A DNA stretch of 51,406 nucleotides from a virus. Numbering within the stretch: the first letter of the stretch is position 1; every line of letters starts with the position of its first letter. Both the position numbers and the translations under genes were made by a program. Of the stretch, positions 7,399-38,273 are shown one piece after another. The stretch is from IMG/VR virus record IMGVR_UViG_3300049811_000206, positions 1 through 51,406 of that record, one strand, 5' to 3'. Under the pieces are notes generated by a model, which saw only the letters and a program-made list of their open reading frames with translations, ran no database searches and was not told the origin of the DNA.

Positions 7399-7766
7399 GA
7401 AGCTTGGCCCGTCAAATCTATCCCACATAAAACCCCCTTGCGATTGCGCTTTGCGACCCACGCCCCCAATTCAGCGACAATCAGACAAAAATTTTCAGGA
7501 TACACCACGGCAGCAAATCCCCCCGCCGTGGCTATTTGCCGAAGGTTATGCACTTGCAGCGTGTCAATTTTTGCTTTCGCGTCACGCTTTAATTCCAACG
7601 CCACAAACTGACCGCGAACGCACGCCAAAATGTCAGGCGTGCCACGCAAGCCCACTTGTTGCACCTTCACAGCCCACACCTGCGGCAGCGTGCGAAGCCA
7701 AGCTTGGACCTTTTGCTTGAAAACGGTTTCCGGCTTCACAGGCTTACCTTTTTCTTGTCTGCCCAT
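7395..7766 (-). CDS. VRR-NUC domain nuclease (PD-(D/E)xK)
   Basis: GTPDILACVRGQFVALELKR is the D...E-x-K motif of VRR-NUC proteins. GTG 7739 overlaps the polymerase stop (GTGA) and has AAAGG upstream, so it may be the real start. Confidence 0.8.
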   Translation of the reverse strand: MGRQEKGKPVKPETVFKQKVQAWLRTLPQVWAVKVQQVGLRGTPDILACVRGQFVALELKRDAKAKIDTLQVHNLRQIATAGGFAAVVYPENFCLIVAELGAWVAKRNRKGVLCGIDLTGQAS

Positions 7767-9565
7767 GACGTGGTGGACATGGCCGCGTCAACGTCCATGG
7801 GTAGGAATTTATGGGGGTAGGCTGCGCACATGATCCGTTTTAACTCGGGCAAAATGTCGGTTTCGCTTTCATGGATTTCCAGCAACAAACTGTCATGCAC
7901 TTGCAACAAAAGGCGCGATTTTTTGCGCGTGGAAACAAGGAAATCGTGCACGTTGTTCATGGCGAATTTGGCAATATCGGCCACCCCGCCTTGAATCAAC
8001 GTGTTGGGGGCCTTGTAGCAAAATTCGGGGTTATTGAAATAGTTCACTCGCCCCGCCCAATTCACGATATAGCCGCGATTTTCGGCCACGCTGGTGACGG
8101 CACGAATGAATTTGCTGACCTGTGGAAGGCGCTCAAAGTATTGGTCACGCAAAGCACGGGCTTTTCCCAGCGATATTTTCAAGGCGGTGGCGAGTTTCCC
8201 CGGGCCGCCCCCATACAACAGCATGAAATTGATTGTTTTGGCTTCCTGGCGTTCCACACCCATGGTTTTTCCCGTGGCCGTGTGAACGTCAAGCCCTTCA
8301 AGGATTTGATTGATTACAGACATTTCCCCCGCATAGTCCAGCATAAGCCTATATTCCGCCTGACTGTAATCTAATTCGGCCAGCTGAAACCCGGGGCGGG
8401 CAATGACGGCACGCTTGACGGGAAAAACTTCGTCCGCCGATTCTTCTTTCGGAACGTTTTGCATGTTTGGTTCCGACATGCTCATGCGTCCGGTTTCCGT
8501 CCCGCCTTGCCGAATGTTTGCATGAAGCACGCCGTTTTCGTCTGCATACTCCAAGAAATTGGCGTAATAGGTGAACGCCTTTTTGTGGGCCGCTCTAATT
8601 TGTTGAACCAATTTGGCCACAGGGGTGGAAAAGCCTTCTAGCACTTCGTCGGTGAAAGACGGATTTCCCTTTTCGGTCAGTGGGTATTTTTCCCCCATTT
8701 TCGTGAAGGCTTCTTTAAGCACCTTCGGCCCGTCCACAAATTCCAGCCCTGTGACTGCCTTGAATTCGTGCATGGCGTTGGCTTCCCGGCTTTCCTCATA
8801 AGCCTTGGCCCGTCTGCAATACTCAAGGTCAAGCTGTAATCCAACCTGTTCCATGGCAAAGCATGTTTTGATTAGCTTGCGCTCATTGGCGGCTAGGCCC
8901 GAGGGCCGGGGCACGTTGACCGGCACCATGGCGTCAAGTTTCTTCAATTCTTCCAGCTGTGAAATCCCCACCAGCCTGGTGATTTCCCCGTCTGTGCAAC
9001 CATAGGGGGCAATCACGTCCAAGGGCACCCGATCATAATGGGGCACCTTCTCTTTTTTCTTTTTGCCGGGGAAAAGCTTTGGGGTGAATAGCCCGTGCTC
9101 GGCAATGAAGTCTTCCACTGCCGTGCTTTTTTCCCGCCCAATTTGCTTCGAAAGGGCGTCAAGGCCATATTGAAACATGTCGTTTCGAACAATCCGCCCT
9201 TGGGTTTCGGTATCGTGGACGGTGCCAGCGATTGAAAGCCCTTCCCGGGCCAGCATGGCAAGGTCAAACTTGGCATTGGCCAAAAACCAATAGCTATCGG
9301 GGTTGCTGAAAATTTCTTGTAGCCGGGCCAACCACTCGCGCGGCAACCACCATTCTTCCGGCAGGTCATACCACTGGCCAGCCACGTATTCCTTGGGGTT
9401 GAAATTCAGATAGAAGCTCTCGGTTGCATCGGCAAGGATGACAGAAAAAAGCCTGTCACCCTGGTAGGGGCGCAGGCCAGTGGTTTCCGTGTCCGTGCCA
9501 TACATTCCCGCGTCTTTGAAGCGGGCAAGCACTTGGTCAAACTGATTTCTTTGGATTAGTGACAT
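7736..9565 (-). CDS. Family A DNA polymerase with 3'-5' exonuclease domain
   Basis: Exo motifs are DTETTGL, NAKFDL and YGCTDGE. Pol motif A is DYSQAEYRLM, motif B is RQEAKTINFMLLYG and motif C is LLLQVHDSLLLE. Confidence 0.95.
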   Translation of the reverse strand: MSLIQRNQFDQVLARFKDAGMYGTDTETTGLRPYQGDRLFSVILADATESFYLNFNPKEYVAGQWYDLPEEWWLPREWLARLQEIFSNPDSYWFLANAKFDLAMLAREGLSIAGTVHDTETQGRIVRNDMFQYGLDALSKQIGREKSTAVEDFIAEHGLFTPKLFPGKKKKEKVPHYDRVPLDVIAPYGCTDGEITRLVGISQLEELKKLDAMVPVNVPRPSGLAANERKLIKTCFAMEQVGLQLDLEYCRRAKAYEESREANAMHEFKAVTGLEFVDGPKVLKEAFTKMGEKYPLTEKGNPSFTDEVLEGFSTPVAKLVQQIRAAHKKAFTYYANFLEYADENGVLHANIRQGGTETGRMSMSEPNMQNVPKEESADEVFPVKRAVIARPGFQLAELDYSQAEYRLMLDYAGEMSVINQILEGLDVHTATGKTMGVERQEAKTINFMLLYGGGPGKLATALKISLGKARALRDQYFERLPQVSKFIRAVTSVAENRGYIVNWAGRVNYFNNPEFCYKAPNTLIQGGVADIAKFAMNNVHDFLVSTRKKSRLLLQVHDSLLLEIHESETDILPELKRIMCAAYPHKFLPMDVDAAMSTTSWADKKKVSL

Positions 9566-9722
9566 TTTTACCCATGGCTTCTGTCAGCAAAGTGTCCACA
9601 ACAAGGCTTTCCGTGCATCCGTGCTTTTTGGCTTGTTTCTTGACCCATGACTTCACGGTTGCCTTGACATACACGAAAAGCACGGTGTTACGCTTGGCCG
9701 CTGCTTTTTTCAACACGTCCAT
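9537..9722 (-). CDS. Small ribbon-helix-helix-like protein
   Basis: 61 aa with a strand VLFVYV followed by two helices (ATVKSWVKKQAKKHG, TESLVVDTLLTEAM), which is an Arc/CopG-like pattern. It overlaps both neighbours. Confidence 0.45.
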   Translation of the reverse strand: MDVLKKAAAKRNTVLFVYVKATVKSWVKKQAKKHGCTESLVVDTLLTEAMGKNVTNPKKSV

Positions 9723-10449: not shown

Positions 10450-10575
10450 TTTGCACCCTTTCAGGAAAGAACAGGTGGCTTGCAGCTGCTACCCAACAAG
10501 CCACCTGCCTAGCAGTAACGGGTTTAGGTTGGTCGGGCCTCATGACCCTAGAACCATGCTGACCCGCTGGCGCTA

Positions 10576-12507: not shown

Positions 12508-12559
12508 GATTCTTCCTTTCAAAAGCGTGCGACATTGCACACCGTGTGCAGTGTAACAA

Positions 12560-13003
12560 TCAGCCCTTACGCATGCCAAGCGTTGTCACAAGCTTGGGTT
12601 CGGCGATACCGGGCACGGTGAAATCAGGGTTGCCTTGCTCAAGGGCGGCTTCCATTTCGCGCTTATACCAGCTGTTGAGGGTTTGGCTGTTGACCGTAAT
12701 CAATTCGTCAAAAATACCCCGCTGGCGCAAGTGTCCAAAAAAAGCTTCGCGCTCCGAACCGTCTTTGGGAACGGTGACGGTGAAACGGTTTTGCTTGAAA
12801 AGTGTGCCGTGGCCCGCTACGGCAAACTTGTCCATGTCGTATTCGTCCATGCAGGCAATGACTTTTGACTTCAGACTTTCCACGATTTGGCTTTGGTTTT
12901 TGGCCTCGGCTTCGATGCGTTCCAGCTTCCCTTTTTCTTCCCAAATTTGGGCGCATAGGGTTTGGAAATCGGCAAGCGTAATGCTTTGGGCGGGCGTGTT
13001 CAT
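12560..13003 (-). CDS. Hypothetical protein, Siphovirus Gp157-like by architecture
   Basis: An N-terminal coiled coil is followed by ...FTVTVPKDG...LNSWYKREMEAALEQGNPDFTVPGIAEPKLVTTLGMRKG. This resembles the Gp157 family pattern (a ...G..iPG... tail ending in basic residues). The call is from recall, not a search. Confidence 0.4.
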   Translation of the reverse strand: MNTPAQSITLADFQTLCAQIWEEKGKLERIEAEAKNQSQIVESLKSKVIACMDEYDMDKFAVAGHGTLFKQNRFTVTVPKDGSEREAFFGHLRQRGIFDELITVNSQTLNSWYKREMEAALEQGNPDFTVPGIAEPKLVTTLGMRKG

Positions 13004-13401
13004 GCTTCGTTTCCCCTTTCAAATGTTTCAATGATATTGCCTTTGACCGCAGTGGCCACGGCAACGGCGCGTTTTTTGCTTGAATAGGCGGTGGGCGATT
13101 CCTCGAAAGGCCCCGGGCTTTTAACAATAAACCAGCTGCGTACGTTTTCGTTTCGGCGCACTACAACGCGCGTAGCCATGGCCCGCGATTCCTCGGGAAT
13201 GCTGAACACGTCGGCAATGGCCCACATGATTTCACCATTCTTGGAATGCCCAATTTTCTTCAGACGCCCGCGCTTTGCCATTTCCGCGCAACGCGCGGTG
13301 GCGGCTTGCATTTTTAGTTTGGCGTTGATTTGGGCGCTGGTGTGGGGGCCGCGTTTCGATAGCAAATCTAAAATGCGCTCAGTGTTCGGCTTGGCTTTCA
13401 T
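13000..13401 (-). CDS. Putative winged-helix DNA-binding protein
   Basis: The N-terminal TERILDLLSKRGPHTSAQINAKL...RCAEMAKRGRLKKIG is wHTH-like. Its SD is sequestered in an upstream hairpin. Confidence 0.5.
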   Translation of the reverse strand: MKAKPNTERILDLLSKRGPHTSAQINAKLKMQAATARCAEMAKRGRLKKIGHSKNGEIMWAIADVFSIPEESRAMATRVVVRRNENVRSWFIVKSPGPFEESPTAYSSKKRAVAVATAVKGNIIETFERGNEA

Positions 13402-13915: not shown

Positions 13916-14008
13916 AAGTGTTCCTTCCAATCACAGCAAGGGCACCACACCATATCATCTTCGAGACAAACAGGCGCACCACAATAAGGGCAAACCCCGG
14001 GCAGCCAA

Positions 14009-14227
14009 TTACTCATTGACGCTAACCCCCAACGTAAGGTGGCCTTGGTCCGTGTATCGCATAAGATTTTGCATCCCGTTTTCAAGGATTGTCAGCTTGA
14101 CCGAAGCCTGCAAAACAGCACACTGTTCAGCATTCAAATCCCACCAAGCGCACTTTTGCCCGATACAGCGGCAATCGTCTGCCCGTTGCGCCGTGACGGA
14201 TAGGATAGGGCAAAAGCGGGTTGTCAT
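14009..14227 (-). CDS. Small Cys-rich hypothetical protein
   Basis: 72 aa. ATG 14227 overlaps the upstream stop. Confidence 0.55.
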   Translation of the reverse strand: MTTRFCPILSVTAQRADDCRCIGQKCAWWDLNAEQCAVLQASVKLTILENGMQNLMRYTDQGHLTLGVSVNE

Positions 14228-14688
14228 TTTTGCACCCTATATTTTGCGCATTCATTCAAAAGCGCTTTGGCTTCCATTTCCCATTTTTCCCACAACGTCC
14301 GGTCACCAGCCTTTGGCGAGGAAATACCGCGCAAGGCGCGTTCCAAAAGATTACTTGCCGCGCGGATCAATTCGGGCTTGGTTGCTTCCTTGGGGGCCTT
14401 GTCAAGCTTACGTGGCAGAAATTCGGTAACGTCCCACACAATGGCCGTTTGCCCGGTCAATGCACATTGCGCCTCACCCACTTCCATGACCACGCCCATA
14501 TCACGCAATTCCGTCAGGCGGGCACATACCGACCCTTTCACAATCGCGTTTGGTATTCCGGCGAATAGTTCACCGGCTGTTTTTGGCCCATGCAGGTATA
14601 GCCTTTCATACACAACAAAGCGGGCCTTGGACAAAAGCCCTTCGTCACGTATGCGGTGATAGGCTTCAATGCTGGTGCGGCGCGTCAT
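14224..14688 (-). CDS. Putative winged-helix (MarR-like) DNA-binding protein
   Basis: ATG 14688 overlaps the upstream TGA (ATGA) and follows AAGGTGG. SIEAYHRI...VVYERLYLHGPKTAGEL...VCARLTELRDMGVVMEVG is wHTH-like. The ORF track start is 14718. Confidence 0.55.
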   Translation of the reverse strand: MTRRTSIEAYHRIRDEGLLSKARFVVYERLYLHGPKTAGELFAGIPNAIVKGSVCARLTELRDMGVVMEVGEAQCALTGQTAIVWDVTEFLPRKLDKAPKEATKPELIRAASNLLERALRGISSPKAGDRTLWEKWEMEAKALLNECAKYRVQK

Positions 14689-14867
14689 TTGTCCACCTTT
14701 TCCGTGTACTCTTTGCATGCTTCAGCCAATGCGCTGAATATTTCTTGCCAATCGTTAGTAATACAGCGCAACCATTTGAAAATCACGTCATGCACTCCGT
14801 TTTGAATCACGCATAGTGTGTGCTTTTCACAGCTGTAGCACGAACGTGTTTTGCATACGCTATTCAT
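14685..14867 (-). CDS. Small Cys-rich hypothetical protein
   Basis: ATG 14867 overlaps the helicase TGA (ATGA). The protein begins MNSVCKTRSCYSCEKHTLC. Confidence 0.55.
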   Translation of the reverse strand: MNSVCKTRSCYSCEKHTLCVIQNGVHDVIFKWLRCITNDWQEIFSALAEACKEYTEKVDK

Positions 14868-17191
14868 ATAATGTTCCCCCACTTCAAAATGCTTTCGGCC
14901 ACGTTTGCTTTGCTTGTTAAGGCTTGCAGCACTTGGGCGTCAATCGTCCCCGGTGTCACAAGGTCAAGACGGGTTACCTTTTCGTGAATTGAACTTCCGC
15001 CACGGTAATTGCGGGCCTCGGCTTGCAGGTCATTTTCAAGCGAAAAATTACGGCTGAAAAAAATGCTGTAGCTGGAAGCCGTCAGGTTGACACCAACGCC
15101 CCCACTGGCCTGATTGGCGATCATGACCCGGCATTTGGGATCATTCTGAAACATGTCAATATTGGCTTGGCGTTCCTTGCCCGTGACTTCCCCGTGCAAT
15201 TGGGTGTAACCCAGCCCCAGCTTTTCACACACCTGGCGAATAACAGCATAATTTGCATGGAAAACGGCCCACACAATCACCTTGTGGTTGGGGGCAATAT
15301 CTTCCAGCAAGTCAGCAAGGGCCGCGATTCGTGGGCAATCGTCAAAAACCACTTCGGTGCCGTCTTCCGCCTTGAGGAATCCGCTGACGATTTGCTGTAA
15401 GCGCAACCCCTTGGTGATTGCCAGCTGTGCGGTGCACACCTTTGATTTTAGGAACGCCACGAAATCTTTTTTCATTTGTTCATAGGCGCGGGCTTGGTCA
15501 GGTGCCATTTCCACTTCAACCGTGTCACGCACCAGCGGGGGCAAATCCAAGCACTCGGATTTCACCACGCGCATGGCTTTGCGATACATTAGCCTACCCA
15601 ATTCGTCACTTGCCCCGGCACGTATGCGCCAATCAGGGAAATAACGTTGCGCGGGCATACCAGCGTTTTTGTCGAAAAAATACTTGGCGCGGAAGGAAAA
15701 GAAATTGTGCCCGAAGGTTTCCCCCTTGTCCAAAATCTTGAATTGCTGGAAGGCGTCCATGGGGCTGTTCAAGATAGGCGTTCCCGACAAAATCCACCGA
15801 TACCGCGTCAGGCTGGCCAGCTGAAAGCATGTTTTTGACCGCTTTGACTGCGGGCTTTTCATGCGTTGGCTTTCGTCAACGGCCATGGCCTCGGGCTGCC
15901 ACTTCTCGAAGGCTTCCACCATGGGCTTCATGGTCAAGGTTTCAAAATTGGTAATGAACACGGCGTTGGGATCGGCGGCAATGACTTTGTTGAACAGGTC
16001 AAGCCGCTTTTTGCCGCTACCCTTGAGCACAAAAACCCGGTCACTTATCTTTGAATTTTTCTGGAATTCACGTGCCCAGTTTTCGCATACCACCACTGGG
16101 CAAATAATTAGAGTGCGCAAAATTCTGGAATGCGCCAAGCATTTCCAGCGAAGCAAATCAATTGCCACCCTTGTCTTTCCCGAATTATGCACCACTAGAC
16201 CATTTGCAACAAAATTGTGGTGCGGTGCCTTACAGCAAATGTCATAGGTCATTTCCACGCCAACACGCTTGATTTCTGTCACGGTACGCCACGAAATAAC
16301 ACCATGCTTAAAATTCGCATATCCTTTGCTGTGCCCGCTTATATGTTCTTTAGCAGTAAGCAGCTGCAAGTTTTCCAGCGCATTATTTCGAGGATTTTTG
16401 TCAATGTGATGTACGTGAAATTTTTTGGGATCAATGTATTTTAGTTTGTTTGGTTTCTTTGTTTCTGCCTGAAACTGCGCCAGTGTAAGCCCATTCAAAT
16501 GGGCTTCAAAAATAGCGCGGTGCTTTTCCAATCTTTTGCAGCGTCGCCCATTGTACGGATGCGGAAATATCCGTGCATACTTGTGATGAATTCCCACTTG
16601 AATATCGGAATAGCGCGGTTTTTCTTTTTTTGCCCCGCTTCCAGTTTTCATGTGCCGGTGTAGGTAATCAAACGCAAGTTTTGTTTCTCCCACACGCAAG
16701 TCACGCAGTGGCTTGAATCCATCTTGGGTTAAGAATAGGTGGTCCGCTGTAGCTCGCAAAGGATTTCCATGATTCGTTGTGGATACGCTGAAAACTTCCT
16801 TTTCCCCGCTTCGCACAACCGCTTCAATTTCATTCAGACAAACATGGTCACCATTAAATGACCTGACATAGGTTTTAATTCCCGTATCCCATGCGTCACG
16901 TGTTCCCATTTCTACGTTGTTAAAATTTCGATATAGCTGTTCCAGCGTAATTTCAAACGCCTTTCCTGCACGATTCACCCTAATCAATGCGTCATGGGTA
17001 AGACACCCGGCTTCAAACAGTAAGGCATATTCTGGCATTTGCTTTGCTACTTCAAATGCTCGCCTCTGATGTTCCCACGGGGGGACTAGGAAGAAATTGG
17101 CAGGGGTATCGGTCACAGGTTTCCTTTCGGCCTCGGGCTTCAGATAGGGGCCGCGTTGCACTTGGTTTCCAAATCGAAATGGGCCACTCAT
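14864..17191 (-). CDS. SNF2-family (DEAD/H-like) helicase interrupted by an intein
   Basis: The exteins read ...LLFEAG + SGKTRVAIDL (Walker A GSGKT after splicing), then AVDESQ (box II), ILSGTP and C-terminal SNF2 motifs (QASGGVGVNLT, QAEARNYR). Residues 63-336 are the intein. Confidence 0.9.
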   Translation of the reverse strand: MSGPFRFGNQVQRGPYLKPEAERKPVTDTPANFFLVPPWEHQRRAFEVAKQMPEYALLFEAGCLTHDALIRVNRAGKAFEITLEQLYRNFNNVEMGTRDAWDTGIKTYVRSFNGDHVCLNEIEAVVRSGEKEVFSVSTTNHGNPLRATADHLFLTQDGFKPLRDLRVGETKLAFDYLHRHMKTGSGAKKEKPRYSDIQVGIHHKYARIFPHPYNGRRCKRLEKHRAIFEAHLNGLTLAQFQAETKKPNKLKYIDPKKFHVHHIDKNPRNNALENLQLLTAKEHISGHSKGYANFKHGVISWRTVTEIKRVGVEMTYDICCKAPHHNFVANGLVVHNSGKTRVAIDLLRWKCLAHSRILRTLIICPVVVCENWAREFQKNSKISDRVFVLKGSGKKRLDLFNKVIAADPNAVFITNFETLTMKPMVEAFEKWQPEAMAVDESQRMKSPQSKRSKTCFQLASLTRYRWILSGTPILNSPMDAFQQFKILDKGETFGHNFFSFRAKYFFDKNAGMPAQRYFPDWRIRAGASDELGRLMYRKAMRVVKSECLDLPPLVRDTVEVEMAPDQARAYEQMKKDFVAFLKSKVCTAQLAITKGLRLQQIVSGFLKAEDGTEVVFDDCPRIAALADLLEDIAPNHKVIVWAVFHANYAVIRQVCEKLGLGYTQLHGEVTGKERQANIDMFQNDPKCRVMIANQASGGVGVNLTASSYSIFFSRNFSLENDLQAEARNYRGGSSIHEKVTRLDLVTPGTIDAQVLQALTSKANVAESILKWGNII
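16184..17005 (-). mobile_element. Intein (274 aa) with an HNH homing-endonuclease domain, inserted in the helicase P-loop
   Basis: Block A is CLTHDALIRV (Cys1 codon at 17003-17005) and block B is ATADHLFLT. The HNH motif is FHVHHIDKNPRNNALENLQLLTAKEH. Block G is HNFVANGLVVHN followed by +1 Ser (Asn codon at 16184-16186). Confidence 0.85.
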
Positions 17192-18308: not shown

Positions 18309-18507
18309 TCAGCACGTCCATGTTCCAAGTGCTTAATTCTGCCGCCTTGACCTCGAAACGGTCAACGCACATATCAAATCGCCTTCGAAGCGCTTCTACA
18401 GGCACAACCTTGACGCCCTTGCGCTCGGTTGCCTGCAAAATACGGTCAAATTGCACAAGTGCGGCGCGGGCCGCGTCCCGTTCTTTCATGGCCTGTTCCA
18501 GTGTCAC
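18301..18507 (-). CDS. Hypothetical protein
   Basis: 68 aa. GTG 18507 overlaps the upstream TGA. An alternative ATG is at 18489. Confidence 0.55.
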   Translation of the reverse strand: MTLEQAMKERDAARAALVQFDRILQATERKGVKVVPVEALRRRFDMCVDRFEVKAAELSTWNMDVLNG

Positions 18508-18848
18508 GGTGTTCCCCCAATTCCGCCCACTTGGGCTTTTGTGTTGACCATTCGGGCCAAGTCTTTGTTGACTGCTTTGGTTTGCTGCAATTCCGAACGG
18601 CAGTTTGACAAGTCAAGCGTTCGCACGGTGTGCTTCAGCATTACGTCTTCAAACCCGTCTGCCATGGCCCCGGCAATTTCCTGACGCAGGGTTTGCCGCA
18701 GCTGGTAGCTTTCCCGCTGAAAGCCAAGCCACAAAATCCCCCAAGCACAAAGAATCAAGCCAACCCCAGCGGTGGCAGATAGGGCCACAAAGGGGACGAA
18801 ACTGACGCGCACATGCAAGTGCTTTCCCACCCTGGCGGCGCTGAACAT
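18504..18848 (-). CDS. Membrane protein, first gene of the minus-strand early/replication block
   Basis: ATG 18848 is preceded by GGAGGG, 7 nt upstream. The TM segment is FVPFVALSATAGVGLILCAWGILWL. The upstream ATG at 18878 lies inside the 17-bp palindrome and has no RBS. Confidence 0.6.
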   Translation of the reverse strand: MFSAARVGKHLHVRVSFVPFVALSATAGVGLILCAWGILWLGFQRESYQLRQTLRQEIAGAMADGFEDVMLKHTVRTLDLSNCRSELQQTKAVNKDLARMVNTKAQVGGIGGTP

Positions 18849-18864: not shown

Positions 18865-18881
18865 ATTTTGTTGAACATAAT
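18865..18881. promoter_or_regulatory. 17-bp palindromic element, copy 1 (ATTTTGTTGAACATAAT)
   Basis: It lies in the divergent intergenic region between 18848(-) and 19076(+), 16 nt upstream of ATG 18848. It is identical to copy 4. Confidence 0.65.
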
Positions 18882-19075
18882 GCAACCACAACGCCTAGCA
18901 CAAATGCAAGCAATCCGCAAACCCAAACCCCGGAAAAAGAAAAACACCCGAGGTAATTCAGAGGTTACCAGCCGCCCCTTGACAGCCCCCCACGCATGCG
19001 TGGCATCGTGGCAAACACTAGCGCCACCTATAGGTGAAAAAAATTTGCACACGTTCGTGCGTGGGGATTGCTGAA

Positions 19076-21505
19076 ATGCTTCAAATCCTGGGGATTCGTG
19101 ACTACACGACAGCCGAAGGCGAAGTGAAAAAGCGCGATGCGTTTTTTCAAAACAATTGGCGTGCGCCAAGTGTTGCCGATTTGTTCAAAAACCTTGACGC
19201 CCACCTTGCCAAAATTCCCGAGGATGCACGGTGGAATTTATACTACACGGCAGCCAATTGCGGGGACGGCAAGCGCGAATTCAAGGAACAACACGTTTTC
19301 GCTTTCGACATTGACGGCATTGACGTGAACCGCGCCCGCGACTATGTGTCAATCATTTGCGCCACGCTTGGCGTGAAGCCCGAGGAAACGGGCACCGTGA
19401 TGACCGGCCACGGGCTGCAATTGCTGATTGGCCTGAAAAACCCAATCACTCGCGCCGCCTGGTTTCGTGAGACAAAGCCCCACTATGTTTTGGTGTTGCG
19501 CAAAATCACGGAAGCCTTGAAAGCCCACGGGCTAAAGTGTGACGCTGACGCTTCGGTGTATGACCACAGGCGTCTTTTGCGTCTGCCCGGAACAATCAAT
19601 GATAAGTCATATAAAGGCTTGCCGCGCACGCGGGCCGAATTGCTTCAGGCCAATATCGTCCCCGTTGAATTCGACATTGGGGCCTTGGCAGGGGCACCAG
19701 CGGAAACGCCGGAACACACGGTGCCCGCCGATTTCATGAAGCGTTATCCAAAGGTGGACACCCCTGCCGTGCTCGCAGGGTGCGAATTTCTGAAATGGAC
19801 CAAAGACAACGCGGCCAAGGTCAATGAGCCGCAATGGTATGCAGCCCTTTCGGTTTTGTCGCGTTGCGAAAATGGCCCCGTTCTTTGTCATGACTACTCG
19901 AAAACCCACCCTGGTTATACCGCCCAAGAAACGCAGCTGAAGATTGACCAAGCCCTAAACGCCAGCGGGCCACGCACGTGCAAGGGCATTGGGACCATGT
20001 GGGACGGGTGCAAGGATTGCCCGAATTTCGGCAAGGTCACCAGCCCAATCATGCTTCGCGGCGCGGACTATATCCGCACGGAAAGCACGGGTTTCCGCCA
20101 CGTGACCTTTGGCGAAGGGGGCAAGGTCACCATTGGCAAGCCTTGTTTTGAAGACTTGCTGAAGGCTTTTGAGCGCAAGCACCGATTCGTCACCATGGCC
20201 GCCAGCCGGATTGTTTACACGTGGACCGGGACGCATTACCAAGTCACCCACCGAAACGAAATCGAAGCGTTCGCACAAGAACAGGTCAGCCCGTCGCCTA
20301 CTATGTCCAATCGAAAAGAATTTGCCGACCTTGTGACGTGCTCCAATATCGTTTCGCCGGATTGGTTTGCCGAAAGCACTTGGCGCAAAATGAATTTCCT
20401 TAACGGTTGGCTTGACCTGACCACAATGACTTTCAACCCCCCAAGTGACCGGCTGGGGTTTCGCCATGTTTTGCCCTACAATTATGAACCCACGGCCACG
20501 TGCCCCCATTACCTTTCCCTTATGAACAACGTCACGGGCGGGGACAGTCAGCTACAGTCAATTTTGAACGAATATGCTGGGTATGCCCTTTCCAATGACA
20601 AGATTTGGCTTCAAAAGGCTTTGGTGCTTTTGGGCGAAGGCTCAAACGGCAAATCAACGTGGCTGAACATTCTGAAGGCGCTTGTGGGCGAGGGTAACTA
20701 TTCCAGCCTTGGCTTGAAAGATTTTGAAAGCGAATACTGCCGCCAAATGCTGGACGGCAAGCTTTTCAACGTGGCCGAAGAAATGCCCCGCCAGCGGCTT
20801 GAAACAGCCAATTTCAAAGCGATCAGCACAGGCGGAACCGTCCAAGCCCGCAAGCCTTACCAAGAACCATATAGCTTCACGAACCGGGCCAAAATGCTAT
20901 TTGCCTGCAACACCCTGCCCGAAACTCAAGACACCAGCGGGGGGTTTTTCCGCCGTTTCCTGATTGTGCCGTTCAACCAAGAATTCAGCGAAGCACGCGG
21001 CAACCTTGACCCGTTCATTGAAGACAAGGTGCTTGAGGAATTGCCCGGTGTGCTCAACACCGTGCTTTCGGCCTACCGTGCCTTGATTCTGAAAAAGCGT
21101 TTCACGGAATCGGAATTGACGAAAGAAGCCCTTTCCAGCTACCAAGACGCCCAAGACACGGTGCTTTCCTGGTGGAATGAATACGTGAGCGTGAACACCA
21201 ACGGCGGAATGGAAACCCAGGCCAGCCGAATCGGTGACATGTATGATTCCTATGTGCGAATCACCAAGGCCAACGGCCAAGCCCCGGTGAACAACAAATG
21301 GTTTGGCCGCCAGCTTAGTTCATTGCTTCCAAACTATCGGCGTCATTACTCCGAAATGTGGGACAAGCAAATGCGCATGAAAATCAGAATCCTGAAAGGC
21401 GTGACTTTCGTGGATGCGGCAGCCCTTGCCTCGGGTGCGCGTCCGGCTTTCAAGCTGGAAGAATGCACGCCCCTGCCCGAAATGTCCCTTGCCATTCCCA
21501 TGTAA
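19076..21505 (+). CDS. Bifunctional AEP primase-polymerase / D5-P4-family SF3 helicase
   Basis: AEP motifs are FAFDIDGID, GHGLQLLIGL and LLRLPGTIN. The helicase has Walker A LLGEGSNGKST, and NRAKMLFACNTLPETQDTSGGFFRRFLIVPF is typical of the D5/P4 primase C-terminal domain. An in-frame GTG at 19034 is possible. Confidence 0.9.
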   Translation: MLQILGIRDYTTAEGEVKKRDAFFQNNWRAPSVADLFKNLDAHLAKIPEDARWNLYYTAANCGDGKREFKEQHVFAFDIDGIDVNRARDYVSIICATLGVKPEETGTVMTGHGLQLLIGLKNPITRAAWFRETKPHYVLVLRKITEALKAHGLKCDADASVYDHRRLLRLPGTINDKSYKGLPRTRAELLQANIVPVEFDIGALAGAPAETPEHTVPADFMKRYPKVDTPAVLAGCEFLKWTKDNAAKVNEPQWYAALSVLSRCENGPVLCHDYSKTHPGYTAQETQLKIDQALNASGPRTCKGIGTMWDGCKDCPNFGKVTSPIMLRGADYIRTESTGFRHVTFGEGGKVTIGKPCFEDLLKAFERKHRFVTMAASRIVYTWTGTHYQVTHRNEIEAFAQEQVSPSPTMSNRKEFADLVTCSNIVSPDWFAESTWRKMNFLNGWLDLTTMTFNPPSDRLGFRHVLPYNYEPTATCPHYLSLMNNVTGGDSQLQSILNEYAGYALSNDKIWLQKALVLLGEGSNGKSTWLNILKALVGEGNYSSLGLKDFESEYCRQMLDGKLFNVAEEMPRQRLETANFKAISTGGTVQARKPYQEPYSFTNRAKMLFACNTLPETQDTSGGFFRRFLIVPFNQEFSEARGNLDPFIEDKVLEELPGVLNTVLSAYRALILKKRFTESELTKEALSSYQDAQDTVLSWWNEYVSVNTNGGMETQASRIGDMYDSYVRITKANGQAPVNNKWFGRQLSSLLPNYRRHYSEMWDKQMRMKIRILKGVTFVDAAALASGARPAFKLEECTPLPEMSLAIPM

Positions 21506-23130: not shown

Positions 23131-23147
23131 ATTTTGTTGAACAAAAT
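23131..23147. promoter_or_regulatory. 17-bp palindromic element, copy 2 (perfect: ATTTTGTTGAACAAAAT)
   Basis: Perfect 8+1+8 palindrome, upstream of the 23065(-) gene. Confidence 0.65.
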
Positions 23148-23153: not shown

Positions 23154-23180
23154 CACCTAAAACACTAATAGTTTTAGGTG
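23154..23180. other. 10-bp-stem hairpin between palindrome copies 2 and 3
   Basis: CACCTAAAAC (23154-23163) pairs with GTTTTAGGTG (23171-23180), with a 7-nt loop. It may terminate the 24848-to-23307 operon. Confidence 0.5.
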
Positions 23181-23195
23181 GGTGCGCTTGTAATT

Positions 23196-23212
23196 ATTTT
23201 GTTGAACAGAAT
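23196..23212. promoter_or_regulatory. 17-bp palindromic element, copy 3 (ATTTTGTTGAACAGAAT)
   Basis: One mismatch to the perfect palindrome; 65 bp centre-to-centre from copy 2. Confidence 0.6.
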
Positions 23213-23306
23213 TCAGCGGGAAGCACTTGCCAATCCCTTAGCCCGATATTCCACCAGCGCACCTTCATTTTGACTTGCTGGGTTTCCGCAACAAAGAAGC
23301 GCTTCC

Positions 23307-23558
23307 TTACTTCAATGGCCACGCCCGTGTTGTTTCGGTGCTTGTAGAGCATGGGGGCTTCCTATCAGGGGCGCGGCCCACGGGCCTAGGCGGCAGGACA
23401 TACCAACCCGAATGCCCGATGCCTACCCCTATCCTATAGACCACGCGGCATGACCGGCAGGTGCGTTGAAAGACACCTAGGGACCGTGGCGCGTGCATGC
23501 GGAAACCACACCTGGGGCAGGGGAACGGCAAGCTTTGCTTGGCTCTAAATAGCGTCAT
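23307..23558 (-). CDS. Putative zinc-ribbon protein
   Basis: CPRCG...CRSC. ATG 23558 overlaps the upstream stop (ATGA). Confidence 0.5.
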   Translation of the reverse strand: MTLFRAKQSLPFPCPRCGFRMHAPRSLGVFQRTCRSCRVVYRIGVGIGHSGWYVLPPRPVGRAPDRKPPCSTSTETTRAWPLK

Positions 23559-24451: not shown

Positions 24452-24664
24452 CTAGCAATCAAACACGAAATGCCTGTGCGTCTTGGGATTGTCAGCGCAG
24501 GCAACAGGTGCGCATTCTTCCCGCGTGGAAAGTGACCAACCGTTTTCCGTGCCACACGGGCGCATGCTGTTCACCTTGGCAACAAAGGCGGGCAATTCCT
24601 CGTCTGTGGCGTCCGAACACACCCACAACCCAAGCATTTGTTCCCCCAGGATTTCAATTTGCAT
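24452..24664 (-). CDS. Hypothetical protein
   Basis: ATG 24664 is preceded by GGGAAGGAAA. The ORF track start at 24682 is GTG. Confidence 0.55.
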   Translation of the reverse strand: MQIEILGEQMLGLWVCSDATDEELPAFVAKVNSMRPCGTENGWSLSTREECAPVACADNPKTHRHFVFDC

Positions 24665-24848
24665 TTCGTTTTTCCTTCCCACTCAAAAAGGATTTCAGCA
24701 TTTTCAATGCGTCCCACGCATTCACAGCGCAAAACATGACGATTAGCCCCAGCGCAAGGCTTCCCCACAGGAAAGACCACACAAGCCAAACAAGCCGCGC
24801 AATGCTCAAGTCAGTACACACAAGCGCCCCCGATATTTTGTTGAACAT
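24654..24848 (-). CDS. Small membrane protein, first gene of a minus-strand operon
   Basis: The TM segment is LVWLVWSFLWGSLALGLIVMFCAV. GTG 24821 follows GGGGG and is probably the true start. ATG 24848 lies inside palindrome copy 4. Confidence 0.5.
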   Translation of the reverse strand: MFNKISGALVCTDLSIARLVWLVWSFLWGSLALGLIVMFCAVNAWDALKMLKSFLSGKEKRNAN

Positions 24849-24851
24849 AAT
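24835..24851. promoter_or_regulatory. 17-bp palindromic element, copy 4 (ATTTTGTTGAACATAAT)
   Basis: Identical to copy 1. It lies 13 nt upstream of GTG 24821 on the minus strand. A TTGACA hexamer sits about 33 nt further upstream on that strand. Confidence 0.65.
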
Positions 24852-25027
24852 TCACGCCACGCTAAAGCATATTTGCCTAGAAGGTGTCAACCAAATTTTT
24901 GTAGTCAGTGTGGCGCTTGGATTCGAGGGGCAAAATATAGTCCGCCCCATGACTATAATATAGCCCGCTGGGACTATAGCCGGGGCGGGGTGTTTCAGGA
25001 ATGAACATGGTTGGAAAGTGGAACAGG

Positions 25028-25481: not shown

Positions 25482-25513
25482 ACAAGGCCATTTTGTAACC
25501 CGTTGATTTTGTT

Positions 25514-25849: not shown

Positions 25850-25858
25850 GCACTTGCA

Positions 25859-25875
25859 TTTTTGTTGAACGTAAT
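25859..25875. promoter_or_regulatory. 17-bp palindromic element, copy 5 (TTTTTGTTGAACGTAAT)
   Basis: It lies 26 nt upstream of ATG 25902, the first gene of the plus-strand late block. TTGCAT sits immediately upstream. Confidence 0.55.
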
Positions 25876-25901
25876 GTTAGCTACTTTCGAGGGGGAAAAA
25901 T

Positions 25902-26219
25902 ATGAAACCGGAAACAATCGCCTTGCTGGCGGAATTCGAAAAATTCGTGTCCGCCGATCCGCGCCTTAAAGCGCTGTGGGCTGCCCTGCCCCAAGAAGCT
26001 GGGATAGCCCTGGGGAAAGCTGTGGAATACATGCCCCAGCTGAAACCGTCTTATTTCCATCAATGGTATTGCAAGCACGAATCCGACCGCTCGGGGCTTA
26101 CCCAGCGCCAAAGCTATCAGCTGTTTCAGCTGGGCTTGATGTTCCTTGACCAAGTGAGCCGGGGACGCTATTACGTGCCGCCGTTCGTGGCCGAAGGGGC
26201 TGCCAATGGGCAAGGATGA
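25902..26219 (+). CDS. Hypothetical protein
   Basis: GAGGGGGAAAAAT lies immediately upstream of ATG 25902. 105 aa. Confidence 0.65.
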   Translation: MKPETIALLAEFEKFVSADPRLKALWAALPQEAGIALGKAVEYMPQLKPSYFHQWYCKHESDRSGLTQRQSYQLFQLGLMFLDQVSRGRYYVPPFVAEGAANGQG

Positions 26220-26403
26220 TAAGCGGCCCGGAAGGAAACCCCTAAACCCTGGTGACCCCCTGGTGCACAAGGGGTTTCGTTTGCCGCGCACCTTGGTGCT
26301 TAGGCTTTCCAAGATGGCCTTGGACCACAAGCGTTCCGAAAGCGAATTTCTTAGGGAATTGCTTGAGGAAACCTTGAACAGGATTGAATCCAATGAAGGT
26401 TGA
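26206..26403 (+). CDS. Ribbon-helix-helix (CopG/MetJ-like) DNA-binding protein
   Basis: GAAGGGG RBS. GFRLPRTLVLRLSKMALDHKRSESEFLRELLEETL has a strand-helix-helix pattern. Confidence 0.65.
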   Translation: MGKDDKRPGRKPLNPGDPLVHKGFRLPRTLVLRLSKMALDHKRSESEFLRELLEETLNRIESNEG

Positions 26404-26620: not shown

Positions 26621-26769
26621 ACAAAACGTGCCTCACCACATACGCCACACTTGTGGCGGTTGGGATCATGCTATTGATAGGCAGGTGCGGCGTAAGCCCC
26701 TGGTGGTTGCTTTCCATTCCGTTTTTCGTGTCGCACTTGGCCTTGGTTCTTGGTCGTTTTCGTGATTGA
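26599..26769 (+). CDS. Small two-TM membrane protein
   Basis: GGGAAAGG RBS precedes ATG 26599. TM segments are TTYATLVAVGIMLLIG and WWLLSIPFFVSHLALVLG. Confidence 0.5.
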   Translation: MPDKSEINKTCLTTYATLVAVGIMLLIGRCGVSPWWLLSIPFFVSHLALVLGRFRD

Positions 26770-26770
26770 T

Positions 26771-26968
26771 TTGGGCACATGTGCCCAAGTTATTTTCCCA
26801 ATGCAATCGGCATATTGTAATTTTCGCCTTGGAAGTTTGGGCACATTTTGGTCTAGTTTGGGCACAAATTGGGCACAAATTTCGGTGCTTTTTTCGTGGA
26901 AACGTTGACGGATTCCTACAAGGGTGCGATATTAAAGATATAACAAACGTTGGGCACACTTGGGCACA
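26771..26968. repeat. Array of seven TTGGGCACA boxes directly upstream of terS
   Basis: A perfect 18-bp palindrome TTGGGCACATGTGCCCAA lies at 26771-26788. Direct copies are at 26837, 26858, 26869, 26950 and 26960. The last copy ends 4 nt before ATG 26973. Confidence 0.85.
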
Positions 26969-26972
26969 TAAA

Positions 26973-27638
26973 ATGGAAAGTCAAGGAAATCAAGAGCTTA
27001 CAGTAAGGGGACAAAAGAAGTGGGATAAGCTGCGCGAAGAATGGCTTGCCAGCAATATGGACCCTTACGAATTCATGCGTGCCAAAAATATCAACATTAG
27101 GTTGGGCGGCGTTCGTCGCGTATTGGCCGAATGGATGAGTGTGTGCCCGGAAGACAAAAAGCCCCGGTTGCATCGTCCGGCCATGACGTGCTTCTACGAT
27201 CAGGTAATGGATTCCATAAAGAAGGAACAGGAAGGGAAGTTACCCAGCACGGCAGACTTGTGGAATTTATATCTTAGGTGGCGTCAGCAACAAAGTGGGC
27301 AGGATTACACCACAGCCGACAAGATTAGGATGCACCTGCACATTCTACTTGAAAAAGGTTTGACGGACGAAGGCACAAGCTACACCCCTACCGAATTGGC
27401 ACGCCTGGCGAACGTGGCGGAATCCATTCAAAGGATTCAACGCCTGGCGCTCGGCTTGACCACTGAAAACGTTGGAATGGAAACGCCACAAACCCACGTT
27501 GAAAAGGACGTTACCCCCGAGGAAAGCCCCCAAGCACAGGAAGCACGCATGCCGGTGTTCGTGGTGGAAATGTCGCGCGGCGGCAAGTTTGTCCGCTCAC
27601 GCCCGACCATGCAGCTGGCCCAAGCGGTAAGTGGTTAG
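26973..27638 (+). CDS. terS: Putative terminase small subunit
   Basis: It lies immediately upstream of terL. 221 aa with a helical N-terminus (KKWDKLREEWLASNMDPYEFMRAKNI) and an acidic/flexible C-terminus. The upstream part of the 26766 ORF is occupied by the repeat array and is unlikely to be coding. Confidence 0.55.
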   Translation: MESQGNQELTVRGQKKWDKLREEWLASNMDPYEFMRAKNINIRLGGVRRVLAEWMSVCPEDKKPRLHRPAMTCFYDQVMDSIKKEQEGKLPSTADLWNLYLRWRQQQSGQDYTTADKIRMHLHILLEKGLTDEGTSYTPTELARLANVAESIQRIQRLALGLTTENVGMETPQTHVEKDVTPEESPQAQEARMPVFVVEMSRGGKFVRSRPTMQLAQAVSG

Positions 27639-27667: not shown

Positions 27668-27673
27668 CTAGTT

Positions 27674-36213: not shown

Positions 36214-36579
36214 ATGAAATTTGTCTTGGCACTATTGCTTGGAACCATGTGCGCGTCAAATATTGCATTGGCGCAATACAACATGCGCGTGGGCAAGCAA
36301 TCCTTCGCCCACGCTACCGTGGGAACAACCGCCCAATTAGCCATTGCCTCGGGATCGGTTGGAAACGGTCCCCTTCACTTTTCCGTCTGCCACGATGCGG
36401 CTTCAGCGTCCACCTTCTTGGCTGTTGGTTTGGCGGCTGACCCATTGACGGATGGCCAACGCCTGGCACCAGGCCAATGCTATGCGTGCGTTTATTGTTC
36501 CGAAAAAGTGCTGAAAGCGTTGCGCGTTGTTGGCCAAGCGGCTGGCACGGGCTACAGCGTCAACCAACAATTGCCGTAA
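36214..36579 (+). CDS. Secreted small protein with the shared C-terminal module
   Basis: GAGGGGG RBS. The Sec-type signal is MKFVLALLLGTMCASNIALA/QY. The C-terminus is LHFSVCHDAASASTFLAVGLAADPLTDGQRLAPGQCYACVY...ALRVVGQAAGTGYSVNQQ. Confidence 0.65.
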   Translation: MKFVLALLLGTMCASNIALAQYNMRVGKQSFAHATVGTTAQLAIASGSVGNGPLHFSVCHDAASASTFLAVGLAADPLTDGQRLAPGQCYACVYCSEKVLKALRVVGQAAGTGYSVNQQLP

Positions 36580-36604
36580 CAACCGGCACACGAAAGGAAG
36601 CACC

Positions 36605-38197
36605 ATGAAATTCCGCTCCAAGGTCAATTTCGCGCAAGTGTATGCCGGGGACAAGCAAGGCTTCAACCTGGGCCTTGATTCCAGCATTTTCCTGCGCAAG
36701 GAAACAACACCCCGCACATTCAACGCCCCGCGCGTTGGAACGCAAGGAAAAAGCGTTTCTGGCGCTACGCCAAGCACCGATATTTCGGCGGGAACAGACA
36801 ACGCTTTGAAGGTTGCCGTGCATGGCGAAACCCCGCTGACGGTCACCTTGACGGTTGCCGGATTGAACACGGGTGCTTTGATTGCTGCCGCCCTTGAAAC
36901 TGCGATCAATGCGGCGCTGTTGGCCGCTGGAAGTGACAACCGGGTTTGGTGTCAGTTTGCCGCTGGCAAGTATGAAGTTTATGACCAATCCACGGGCGCG
37001 GCGTCTGCCGTTGCGATCACAGACGCGGACACCAACAACGTGGCCGATGCGCTGAAGCTAGGCACTCTGAACGGCGGAACCGAAACCGCTGGCACCGATG
37101 ACCAAGACTTTTTGCTTATCACCACGGGCGGGCCGAAGTTTGAACAGCCCATTGAAACCAACGCCCACCGCTCGGGCCGCTTCCATTCTGGAATCATCAA
37201 AAAGAAAATGATGGCCGAATACGACATGGAAACCTATGTCAACATGTTCGGCAGCGCGGGCGCTTCCTTGGACAACGCCGTGCGCTTGTTGTTCGAAAAT
37301 GCTTTCGGCAATGAAGCCGTCAACGCTGGCGTTTCGATTGACTACACCCAAGGGTTGCCAAGCTTCTATTTCAGCCTGGCGCGTGTTTCCACGATTTTCG
37401 GGGAATATTATACCGGCTGTTACGCCAAGGAATTGGGTTTCACCTTCCCGGGCGATGGCCCCGCTACCGTCAAGCATTCCGGCAAGGCGGCCAAGGCGCT
37501 TATCGCGGGCCTTGCGCAAACGTCTGCCGCGTCAAATGCTTCCGCCGTGGTCACCCTGGTGGCTGGCGAAGAAAACCGCTACACGGTTGGCGCACCTGTC
37601 ATGCTGGTGGACACCGATGGCCGAACCGTTTTGGCGGGTGTTGATGGCAGCCTGACCGTTGCAAGCATTGACGAATTGGCCCACACGTTGACCCTTTCGG
37701 GTGTTGTCACCTGCGGAACGGGCGCTTTCGTGACGCCGTGGCATCCTGGTGCGGTGCAACAAACGGGACGTGACAATGTTTTCACGGACCTTGTTGGTAG
37801 CATTAAACTGCGCCAAGGCGGGGCTTCGCTTGACGTGACGAACATTGGCCTGACCTGCACCAATGACACCGTGGACCTTGACAACATTTATGGCGCGGAC
37901 GCCAACAAGGGCGGCGTGTATGGCAACCGGGCCACGCATACCCTTTCGGTGACCTTCAACCTGTCCAATGAAAACTTCGCGGAAATCGTCTTGGCGCGGA
38001 AGTTTGCCGGGTTGTCCCCTGAAATCATCCTCGGGGATGCGGCTGGCCGTCACCTGCGCATTCGTGCCCCGAAGTGGCTGCCTGCGGTTCCTGCCGTTGA
38101 AGTGCCGGAAAATGGCGTCACTCCTGTCACGCTTGAGGGTATCTTGTATGAAAGCGCCCCTGGACAGCGTGACCCGATTGAAATTTCATTCCGTTAA
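36605..38197 (+). CDS. Major tail (tube) protein, large form
   Basis: AAAGGAAG RBS. It lies immediately before the chaperone/frameshift pair and the tape measure, and is followed by a strong terminator. 530 aa. Confidence 0.7.
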   Translation: MKFRSKVNFAQVYAGDKQGFNLGLDSSIFLRKETTPRTFNAPRVGTQGKSVSGATPSTDISAGTDNALKVAVHGETPLTVTLTVAGLNTGALIAAALETAINAALLAAGSDNRVWCQFAAGKYEVYDQSTGAASAVAITDADTNNVADALKLGTLNGGTETAGTDDQDFLLITTGGPKFEQPIETNAHRSGRFHSGIIKKKMMAEYDMETYVNMFGSAGASLDNAVRLLFENAFGNEAVNAGVSIDYTQGLPSFYFSLARVSTIFGEYYTGCYAKELGFTFPGDGPATVKHSGKAAKALIAGLAQTSAASNASAVVTLVAGEENRYTVGAPVMLVDTDGRTVLAGVDGSLTVASIDELAHTLTLSGVVTCGTGAFVTPWHPGAVQQTGRDNVFTDLVGSIKLRQGGASLDVTNIGLTCTNDTVDLDNIYGADANKGGVYGNRATHTLSVTFNLSNENFAEIVLARKFAGLSPEIILGDAAGRHLRIRAPKWLPAVPAVEVPENGVTPVTLEGILYESAPGQRDPIEISFR

Positions 38198-38221: not shown

Positions 38222-38256
38222 GGCCCCCTTGGTATTCCCAGGGGGGCCTTTTTTTG
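38222..38256 (+). terminator. Rho-independent terminator after the tail tube gene
   Basis: GGCCCCCTTGG pairs with CCAGGGGGGCC, followed by TTTTTTT (38249-38255). Confidence 0.8.
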
Positions 38257-38273
38257 TTACTGTTGAACAAAAT
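38257..38273. promoter_or_regulatory. 17-bp palindromic element, copy 6 (TTACTGTTGAACAAAAT)
   Basis: It directly abuts the terminator T-run and lies 22 nt upstream of ATG 38296. Confidence 0.55.

Follow-up and report, generated by a model that had tools for sequence, protein, structure and literature searches.

The immunity repressor of mycobacteriophage L5 and other cluster A phages acts through a short site that is repeated genome-wide, in promoters and in short intergenic spaces, and these operators and stoperators are found in early and late operons, where both the initiation and the elongation of transcription are affected (PMC9283540). In Corynebacterium glutamicum, the GntR-type repressor PxpR has the operator AGATTGTTCAACAATCT, mutation of which derepresses the promoter (PMC13274462); this was the only report that a search of the literature for the present motif matched. 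The element considered here is a 17-base palindrome in the IMG/VR virus record IMGVR_UViG_3300049811_000206, a phage contig that was analyzed over its whole length of 51,406 bases (the window). An earlier reading of the letters alone, referred to below as the original prediction, had described the palindrome as marking the head of nearly every transcription unit. The palindrome recurs at six positions that are conserved in part among close relatives, and it is probably the operator of one symmetric, phage-encoded DNA-binding regulator, as judged from its sequence, placement, and distribution; that this regulator would act as a repressor is part of the same proposal and is quite possible, although open to real doubt.

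The motif has the form ATTTTGTT-G/C-AACAAAAT, or, written out, a-T-T-t-T-G-T-T-(G/C)-A-A-C-A-a-A-A-t. Scored with a weight matrix derived from the six good copies, the sites starting at 18865, 23131, 23196, 24835, 25859, and 38257 reach 24-30 bits, and the next best score anywhere in the window is 15.6 bits, for a weak 17-mer match inside the polymerase gene (8597-8613). The family is thus sharply bounded at six members. Enrichment over a shuffled background, which the original prediction had made a condition of its proposal, is pronounced, there being 13 strand-matches to the 17-mer at three or fewer mismatches compared with 0.47 expected. The 10-mer TTGTTGAACA, previously counted four times, actually occurs five times (0.23 expected from shuffles), the fifth copy being at 15987 inside the helicase gene, and in an unbiased count TTTGTTGAAC, with 7 copies, is the commonest 10-mer of the whole genome. 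Perfect palindromes with 8-nucleotide arms are not enriched as a class (6 compared with 5.95 expected), and what is exceptional is the recurrence of one particular palindrome rather than palindromes in general. All of the copies listed in the original prediction are present in the sequence, but the one regarded there as degenerate (GAAATGTTGAACAATTT, 47534..47550) does not stand as a member of the family: it is a core match of 9 bp inside the 3' end of the open reading frame (ORF) 47156..47569, scores less than 8 bits, lies 29 nucleotides before the next start codon, and is at chance level. Chance alone should give 0.78 matches to the core TGTTSAACA, so that this match and a second doubtful core match at 15988 in the helicase gene (15984..16000, 9.3 bits), like the weak match at 8597, may be noise. 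Half-sites number 15 compared with 5.8 expected, but 6 of the 15 belong to full sites and there is no clear enrichment outside them. Two separated half-sites, AACGAACAAAAT and ATTTTGTTCATT, form an inverted pair 54 nucleotides apart at 25440-25451 and 25506-25517 in a non-coding gap.

Intergenic sequence accounts for 7.3% of the genome according to a gene map that was made from the list of ORFs and checked by a codon-usage score. Five of the six strong sites are located in this fraction (binomial P ~1e-5), each of them 13-65 nucleotides upstream of the next start codon. The original prediction had extended both statements to all six sites; the exception is the copy at 23196 (copy 3, ATTTTGTTGAACAGAAT, 23196..23212, 28.4 bits), which is classed as genic, takes in the stop codon and the codons just before it in the minus-strand ORF 23194..23352, and is 130 nucleotides from the next start. 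Copy 1 (ATTTTGTTGAACATAAT, 18865..18881, 30.0 bits) is 4 nucleotides from a ribosome-binding site and 16 nucleotides from the start codon (ATG) of 18504..18848, the first of the minus-strand early genes; a promoter-like TTGACA of the primase gene is found about 115 bp to its right. Copy 2 (23131..23147, 29.5 bits), a perfect 8+1+8 palindrome, is 65 nucleotides upstream of the minus-strand ATG at 23065 and forms a pair with copy 3, from which it is separated by 65 bp centre to centre. Copy 4 (24835..24851, 30.0 bits) is identical to copy 1 and is found 3 nucleotides from a GGGGG sequence and 13 nucleotides from the GTG start of a small membrane-protein gene on the minus strand (24654..24821). 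Copy 5 (TTTTTGTTGAACGTAAT, 25859..25875, 26.8 bits) lies 26 nucleotides before the first gene of the plus-strand block, which starts at 25902, and copy 6 (TTACTGTTGAACAAAAT, 38257..38273, 24.2 bits) lies 22 nucleotides before the ATG at 38296 and 8 nucleotides past an intrinsic terminator on the plus strand (38222..38248, an 11-bp stem and then T7) at the end of the gene 36527..38197. The identical pseudo-starts encoding MFNKIS that had been noticed at copies 1 and 4 are real; they are in frame with the downstream genes and have no ribosome-binding site. All six strong sites, and all seven exact matches to the core, have G as the central base on the plus strand.

The description of the motif as the head of nearly every transcription unit is accordingly too strong. 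Copy 3 is at the 3' end of a gene, and no copy is present in the other gaps of at least 90 nucleotides at 1295-1406, 7077-7201, 10450-10575, 13916-14008, 14719-14863, 26621-26765, and 27639-27732. A copy is also absent from the 68-nucleotide gap after the capsid gene (34012-34079), so that the unit following the terminator there has none; the terminator itself is putative, being a G+C-rich stem-loop read by eye in a stretch that was not covered by the terminator scan.

The original prediction had proposed that the motif be sought in related phage genomes, and it was found in all four of the close relatives that were identified. The D5/P4-type primase-helicase (19061..21505, plus strand, identified by Pfam) has hundreds of homologues, of which only two are close, those of L001 (70% identical, on a 5.4-kb contig) and L002 (52%, on an 8.4-kb contig). 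In L001 a perfect copy is present at the orthologous spot (684-700), 16 nucleotides before the ATG of the divergent gene and with the same geometry as in the window, whereas L002 has three copies. The first gene behind copy 5 has three homologues, and in both of those for which the DNA could be read, L355 and L356, the motif precedes this gene (323-339 and 2640-2656, respectively); in L356 a divergent operon is headed by another two copies, separated by 62 bp. The flanking cargo genes are non-homologous between the window phage and L001, L002, L355, and L356. None of the more than 100 distant relatives retrieved (primase identity of 48% or less, terminase identity of 56% or less) has the motif, and no closer relatives emerged when IMG/VR, JGI metagenomes, and GTDB genomes were searched with proteins as anchors. 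Exact-pattern scans of IMG/VR with a 15-mer and with two spaced cores returned only single chance matches, contigs of giant viruses, and tandem repeats in low-GC contigs that are unrelated. In the 14 sites of the five phage fragments, the tally over 28 half-sites is A17 T25 T27 T22 T27 G28 T28 T28: the inner GTT (GTT/AAC) is invariant in all 28, the T at position 5 is present in 27, and there are 0-3 mismatches per arm. Of the 14 central bases, 10 are G and 4 are C; orthologous sites need not agree, C being present in L355 where the window and L356 have G. The features of a palindromic operator, namely dyad symmetry, over-representation with an intergenic location, and conservation at orthologous positions (L001, L355, and L356), are therefore present in this motif.

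With respect to the nature of the element, the arms degenerate independently among the 14 sites, substitutions giving mismatches with no compensating changes. The RNA folds of the copies are weak (-1.4 to -3.8 kcal/mol, with z-scores of -0.5 to +1.4 relative to shuffled sequences) and there is no Rfam match for the motif; for these reasons an intrinsic terminator or other structured RNA element was rejected. The relationship of the palindrome to promoter-like sequences is variable. In the orthologous late operons (copy 5, L355, and copy C of L356) it is framed by TTGC(T/A)(A/T) and TGTTAG while the surroundings diverge, and it fills the 17-18-nucleotide spacer of a putative -35/extended -10 promoter. 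In two of the L002 copies (L002-370 and L002-10) and in copy B of L356, the sequence GCTTGAC directly abuts the palindrome, with a TAA-type hexamer 17 nucleotides farther on in two of the three. At 18865 and 24835 in the window, and in L001 and copy A of L356, the palindrome is 3-5 nucleotides from the ribosome-binding site and 13-16 nucleotides from the start codon. Finally, copies B and A of L356, 62 bp apart, bracket the sequence TTGACT-17-TAAACA, and the window copies at 23196 and 23131 bracket a 10-bp stem-loop (23154..23180, minus strand) and a weak promoter-like TTACAA-17-TATTAG on the minus strand, read by eye, that overlaps it. The stem-loop lacks a proper T-run, was not flagged by the terminator scan, and was ruled out as a canonical terminator. 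A consensus scan identified no sigma-70-type promoter at any site, and no fixed register of the motif to -35 and -10 elements was found. Variable placement relative to promoter hexamers is typical of operators, and the independence of the arms, the weak RNA folds, and the variable register together indicate a protein-binding DNA site with two-fold symmetry; symmetric arms around a free G/C centre are as expected for a symmetric dimer. The suggestion of the original prediction that this is the site of a dimeric regulator is therefore the best reading of the symmetry, the orthologous conservation, and the lack of an RNA hairpin, but on these grounds the binder could come from the phage or from the host.

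A model consistent with these features is one in which the operator is bound by a sequence-specific protein with two-fold symmetry, a dimer or a dimer of dimers, that would control, most likely by repression, at least five gene blocks: those for early replication, two sets of small genes, packaging and head proteins, and the tail chaperone and tape-measure protein. At the putative late promoter (25854..25883, plus strand), composed of weak hexamers read by eye, a -35-like TTGCAT (25854-25859) and the TGn-TAG -10-like region, consisting of TGT followed by TAGCTA (25878-25883), are separated by an 18-nucleotide spacer that coincides with the palindrome, so that the bound protein would exclude RNA polymerase. 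In other units the operator is a few bases before the ribosome-binding site and might act as a roadblock. In two cases, operator pairs about six helical turns apart (62-65 bp) bracket promoter-like sequence, which is the spacing needed for cooperative binding on one face of the DNA and may also permit looping. A TTGACA at 24885..24890 on the minus strand, identified by alignment with L356, copy B of which aligns with copy 4, is a putative -35 element reading leftwards through copy 4; no convincing -10 element was found for it. This hexamer is included in a non-coding block of about 60 nucleotides (containing GGTGTCAACCAAATTTTTGTAGTCAGTGT) at 24871-24930 that is conserved with L356 (about 1215-1265) despite unrelated flanking genes, and the block might serve as a promoter or mark where a non-coding transcript begins.

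The factor that binds the operator would, in this model, be encoded by the phage rather than the host, and the best single candidate is a ribbon-helix-helix (RHH) protein encoded at 26206..26403 on the plus strand, the second gene behind copy 5 and thus within an operon that follows one of the operators. The RHH fold that the original prediction had recognized in this protein is supported by several comparisons. It matches Pfam RHH_1 at E 8e-4, just below the cut-off, as well as the Arc-like and CopG-like families in PHROG. A homologue search returned only the protein itself, so that its structure was modeled with AlphaFold from a single sequence; the predicted local distance difference test score (pLDDT) is >90 over both helices, almost all of the matches of the model in the PDB are RHH proteins (Arc, CopG, AmrZ, MatP, and antitoxins), and the target-normalised TM-scores against chains of Arc, CopG, and AmrZ are 0.68-0.78. 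Orthologues in L355 and L356 are 63-67% identical, retain the strand segment HKGFRLP, and have the same position near the operator. The clustered iterons upstream of copy 5 differ between the window, L355, and L356, whereas the palindrome is invariant, and the palindrome is therefore the better match if the RHH protein binds to either. These correlations make the RHH protein a tentative candidate for the binder. Covariation between regulator and operator, sought by comparing the RHH gene with nearby palindromes in the more distant relatives L111 and L112, gave no clear pattern.

Two further proteins, both proposed previously to have winged helix-turn-helix domains, are alternative candidates. 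The product of 14224..14688 (minus strand) belongs to a large phage family (PHROG 1123, with 2,021 representative clusters), homologues of which confirm the start at 14688; a winged helix is supported through the family profile, for which the MarR-like PDB entry 1ku9 is a match at E 0.006, and through matches of individual members to the Pfam families TrmB, HTH_20, and Penicillinase_R, but a single-sequence structure model of 14224..14718 has a pLDDT of 37 and is unusable. For the product of 13000..13401 (minus strand), faint matches (E 0.08-0.3) and a sequence pattern read by eye make it a possible winged-helix protein and a weaker alternative. The product of 9537..9722, previously designated as a second RHH protein, has no family support. 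The primase itself is also of some interest, in that its C-terminal segment (residues 681-740) is 68% and 47% identical in L001 and L002 as compared with 20-38% in motif-free relatives. The alpha protein of phage P4 binds TGTTCACC repeats, which resemble the half-site TGTTCAAC.

The explanations that compete with a phage-encoded regulator differ in what they take to recognize the motif. One is that the palindrome is bound by a host regulator, for example a winged-helix dimer of the GntR/FadR type, through which the phage units would be tied to a host signal. The motif core and its 8+1+8 layout are identical to those of the operator of PxpR, a repressor of host type, and the general GntR/FadR form T-n-GT-n(1-3)-AC-n-A is seen in TTGTT(G/C)AACAA, while a cognate GntR regulator was not found in the phage, no protein of which matches Pfam GntR, even at E values up to 5 for the candidates. 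In addition, the small early genes of the window have no counterparts in L002, a carrier of the motif, and distant relatives, presumably infecting other hosts, are without it. The uniformity of the sites (0-3 mismatches and an invariant core) is nevertheless what one would sooner expect from a factor dedicated to the phage than from a host regulon, and the phage has several small DNA-binding proteins with no assigned target, so that control by a host protein appears unlikely. The palindrome might alternatively be the core promoter itself, perhaps a bidirectional one, the arms of which supply -10-like hexamers (nATTnT, and CAAAAT on the other strand) to the host RNA polymerase, possibly with a phage specificity factor. 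This would account for the location of copies at unit heads, 13-65 nucleotides from start codons, for the absence of canonical promoters near the sites in the consensus scan, and for the A at position 2 and T at position 6 of the hexamer in each arm, and at 38257 the space between the terminator and the gene is too short for any other promoter. However, a gene-proximal -10 element would place the start of transcription downstream of well spaced ribosome-binding sites at 18865, 24835, L001, and copy A of L356, strict two-fold symmetry with a free G/C centre is unexpected in a directional signal, the register relative to the conserved TTGAC and TTGC hexamers differs among the relatives, copy 3 is at the 3' end of a gene, and no RNA polymerase or sigma factor gene was detected in the phage. 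Arrangements with -35 and -10 elements in both orientations, an extended -10, a Bacteroidetes-type TAnnTTTG, and leaderless MFNKIS starts were also tried as core promoters and none fits all sites; a core promoter role is considered distinctly improbable, though least so at 38257.

Still less probable is that the copies are not transcriptional sites but serve the replication, partition, or packaging of the DNA. The better conservation of the C-terminal segment of the primase in the motif-bearing L001 and L002, and the single strand polarity common to all six window copies, might be seen in this light, but the difference in primase identity follows the overall phylogeny and the polarity is lost in relatives; a strand-polar replication or packaging signal was in fact rejected as a general property, because the copies in L355, L356-A, and L002-370 have C at the centre. 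The copies are moreover dispersed, singly or in pairs, at the starts of genes and are not clustered as in an iteron origin or a parS-type locus, no ParA or ParB genes were found, and a separate, lineage-specific cluster of different iterons (25512-25850) in the 1-kb non-coding gap is a likelier origin or pac site, so that this role must be regarded as very improbable. The least credible of the alternatives is an action at the level of RNA, as a 5'-untranslated region hairpin, the site of a translational repressor, or a site of RNA processing near the ribosome-binding site. Several copies are 3-13 nucleotides upstream of a ribosome-binding site and are thus probably transcribed, but the hairpins are weak and their variants break pairing without compensation as described above, the loop base would differ between plus- and minus-strand transcripts, and some copies are upstream of -35-like hexamers; there is scarcely any likelihood that the motif functions in this way.

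The reading of the motif as the operator of a phage-encoded regulator has its own difficulties, and several observations weigh against it. The site at 38257 is in a gap of 47 nucleotides between a terminator and a start codon that has no space for a separate promoter, so that the motif there must be either the promoter itself or act on transcription reading through the terminator. All of the promoter hexamers on which the model relies are weak and were read by eye, none having been flagged by the consensus scan. The uniform G on the plus strand at the six window copies has a chance probability of about 0.03, although it is not general in relatives. The occurrence of the motif in L002, which has none of the small early genes of the window, is equally compatible with a host factor. 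With regard to the RHH protein in particular, its co-occurrence with the motif is confounded by phylogeny, and in L111 and L112, where an RHH gene is kept at this position, the late promoter lacks any dispersed palindrome comparable to the motif. Finally, no integrase, CI-like repressor, or partition genes were found, so that there is no obvious need for a genome-wide repressor.

Other repeated sequences are present in the window and its relatives. The divergent operons headed by copies 4 and 5 are separated by a non-coding gap of about 1 kb (24822-25901) that contains more than 10 TTCCATGAA/TTCATGGAA-type units (25512-25850) and several GGGCCGGGG units (25021-25258 and 25473). Different iterons occupy the same place in L109 (10131-10221), L110 (10350-10602), L111 (12403-12602), L112 (12835-13146), and L356 (2290-2600), and the gap is probably a replication origin or packaging site. 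A perfect 18-bp palindrome, TTGGGCACATGTGCCCAA, is located at 26771-26788, at the very start of the small-terminase-like ORF 26766..27638, and the 94-nucleotide gap that follows this ORF (27639-27732), directly upstream of the large terminase gene, is strikingly A+T-rich. The more distant relative L112 has a dispersed palindrome of its own, AGTGCTTGCA-N3-5-TGCAAGCACT, at 5378-5409 and 5700-5731, ahead of two early units, and a half-site of it at 9895-9904 adjoins the primase gene; this may be a lineage-specific counterpart of the window motif. L120, an unrelated viral contig with a G+C content of 39%, has at 9283-9790 three copies of a cassette (ctgtcaat...CCTTTGTTCAACAAAAActcaattg) that hold the same core and probably represent an independent regulatory repeat.

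Bases 1-117 of the window are exactly repeated at 51290-51406, which indicates that the assembly is circular or terminally redundant, with a unit genome of 51,289 bp and a G+C content of 53%; one ORF probably runs across the contig junction. The minus-strand replication block, as identified by Pfam, encodes a family-A DNA polymerase (7736..9565), an exonuclease, proteins similar to gp33 and gp34 of Pam3, and an SNF2 helicase (14864..17191). The helicase gene is intein-invaded: the protein has 775 residues as compared with 481-485 in L002, L109, and L110, with an intein splicing domain at residues 116-336 and an HNH endonuclease at residues 255-283. The protein encoded at 12172-12579 on the minus strand matches PHROG 997, "replication terminator," at E 1e-20 but has no Pfam or PDB sequence match. 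The minus strand also carries two short blocks of small genes, and a long plus-strand block encodes the large terminase, portal, protease, capsid, and tail proteins and continues over the contig junction to an M15 endolysin. In the ORFs scanned with Pfam, and for integrases and repressors also with PHROGs, no integrase, CI- or L5-like repressor, ParA/ParB, sigma factor, or RNA polymerase was detected. There is no match at the DNA level to cultured phages, and by large terminase the nearest of these (Tunturiibacter, Thermus, and Halorubrum phages) have a maximum of 26-30% identity. Clues to the host are lacking in the window, which has 0 tRNA genes and 0 HIP1 sites, and the metagenome-assembled genome labels of related contigs are inconsistent. 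Over the whole window, G+C-rich 6-bp palindromes are nearly absent (GCGCGC, CCGCGG, GCCGGC, GGGCCC, ACGCGT, CGGCCG, GGCGCC, and ACCGGT are each present 0-1 times compared with 10-27 expected), GTAC is depleted five-fold (13 compared with 67 expected), and CATG is enriched; the depletion of palindromes suggests a strong avoidance of restriction and a host that is rich in restriction systems.

If the motif is indeed such an operator, a lineage without cultured relatives would have all of its regulatory wiring defined by six short sites and a single small protein. The motif would also provide a sequence tag for spotting members of this clade in metagenomes. A more far-reaching scheme, which is considered a long shot, is that an apparently virulent phage with no integrase practises genome-wide silencing through one RHH repressor encoded at the head of the packaging operon, with the palindrome standing before every module, including the structural and tail genes. 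Were this so, some of the sites would be in-phase pairs that loop the DNA around promoters, as a palindromic counterpart of the L5 stoperators, and the circuit would imply either a non-integrative carrier or pseudolysogenic state or one timing switch for the whole genome; the conserved operator-promoter cassettes might then double as recombination joints for swaps of cargo genes between relatives.

It is well known that phage regulators can have repeated operators, and the present motif is best regarded as one more control element of an ordinary type, found in a new lineage of phages without cultured members; current ideas are left unchallenged by it. RHH repressors bind operators that are dyad-symmetric and odd in length, at about 17-21 bp. 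The position of a small RHH gene behind an operator-bearing promoter, in L355 and L356 as well as in the window, resembles that in the autoregulatory systems of RHH repressors such as P22 Arc and Mnt, CopG, and AmrZ, but Arc, Mnt, and CopG control one or two promoters as compared with the five or six units over the window genome. In phage P1, with its C1 operators, and in phiC31, with 17-bp conserved inverted repeats, one repressor acts at many sites scattered near promoters and terminators; both of these phages are temperate and have known repressor genes, whereas no lysogeny module is seen in the window phage. The motif shares with the PxpR operator the 8+1+8 architecture and the 11-bp core TTGTT(C/G)AACAA, but the outer arms are AGA/TCT in the latter and ATT/AAT in the window, and PxpR has a single site in a bacterial metabolic operon.

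The nearest analogue at the level of the system is L5, because the window phage also repeats one short site across early and late units. The L5 sites, however, are asymmetric 13-mers bound by a monomer, with an orientation that follows transcription, and are present in more than 20 copies in a temperate phage, whereas the window has six copies of a strict palindrome with a free G/C centre and no evident immunity repressor or integrase. An orientation of the L5 type is not found, the G centre being on the plus strand before both plus- and minus-strand genes and flipping between orthologues. As regards the placement of L5 sites within operons, the copies at 23196 and 38257 are at the end of a gene and after a terminator, respectively, and may or may not be sites internal to an operon. 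The window motif is therefore similar to the L5 sites in its distribution over early and late units, and similar to the PxpR operator in its core and architecture.

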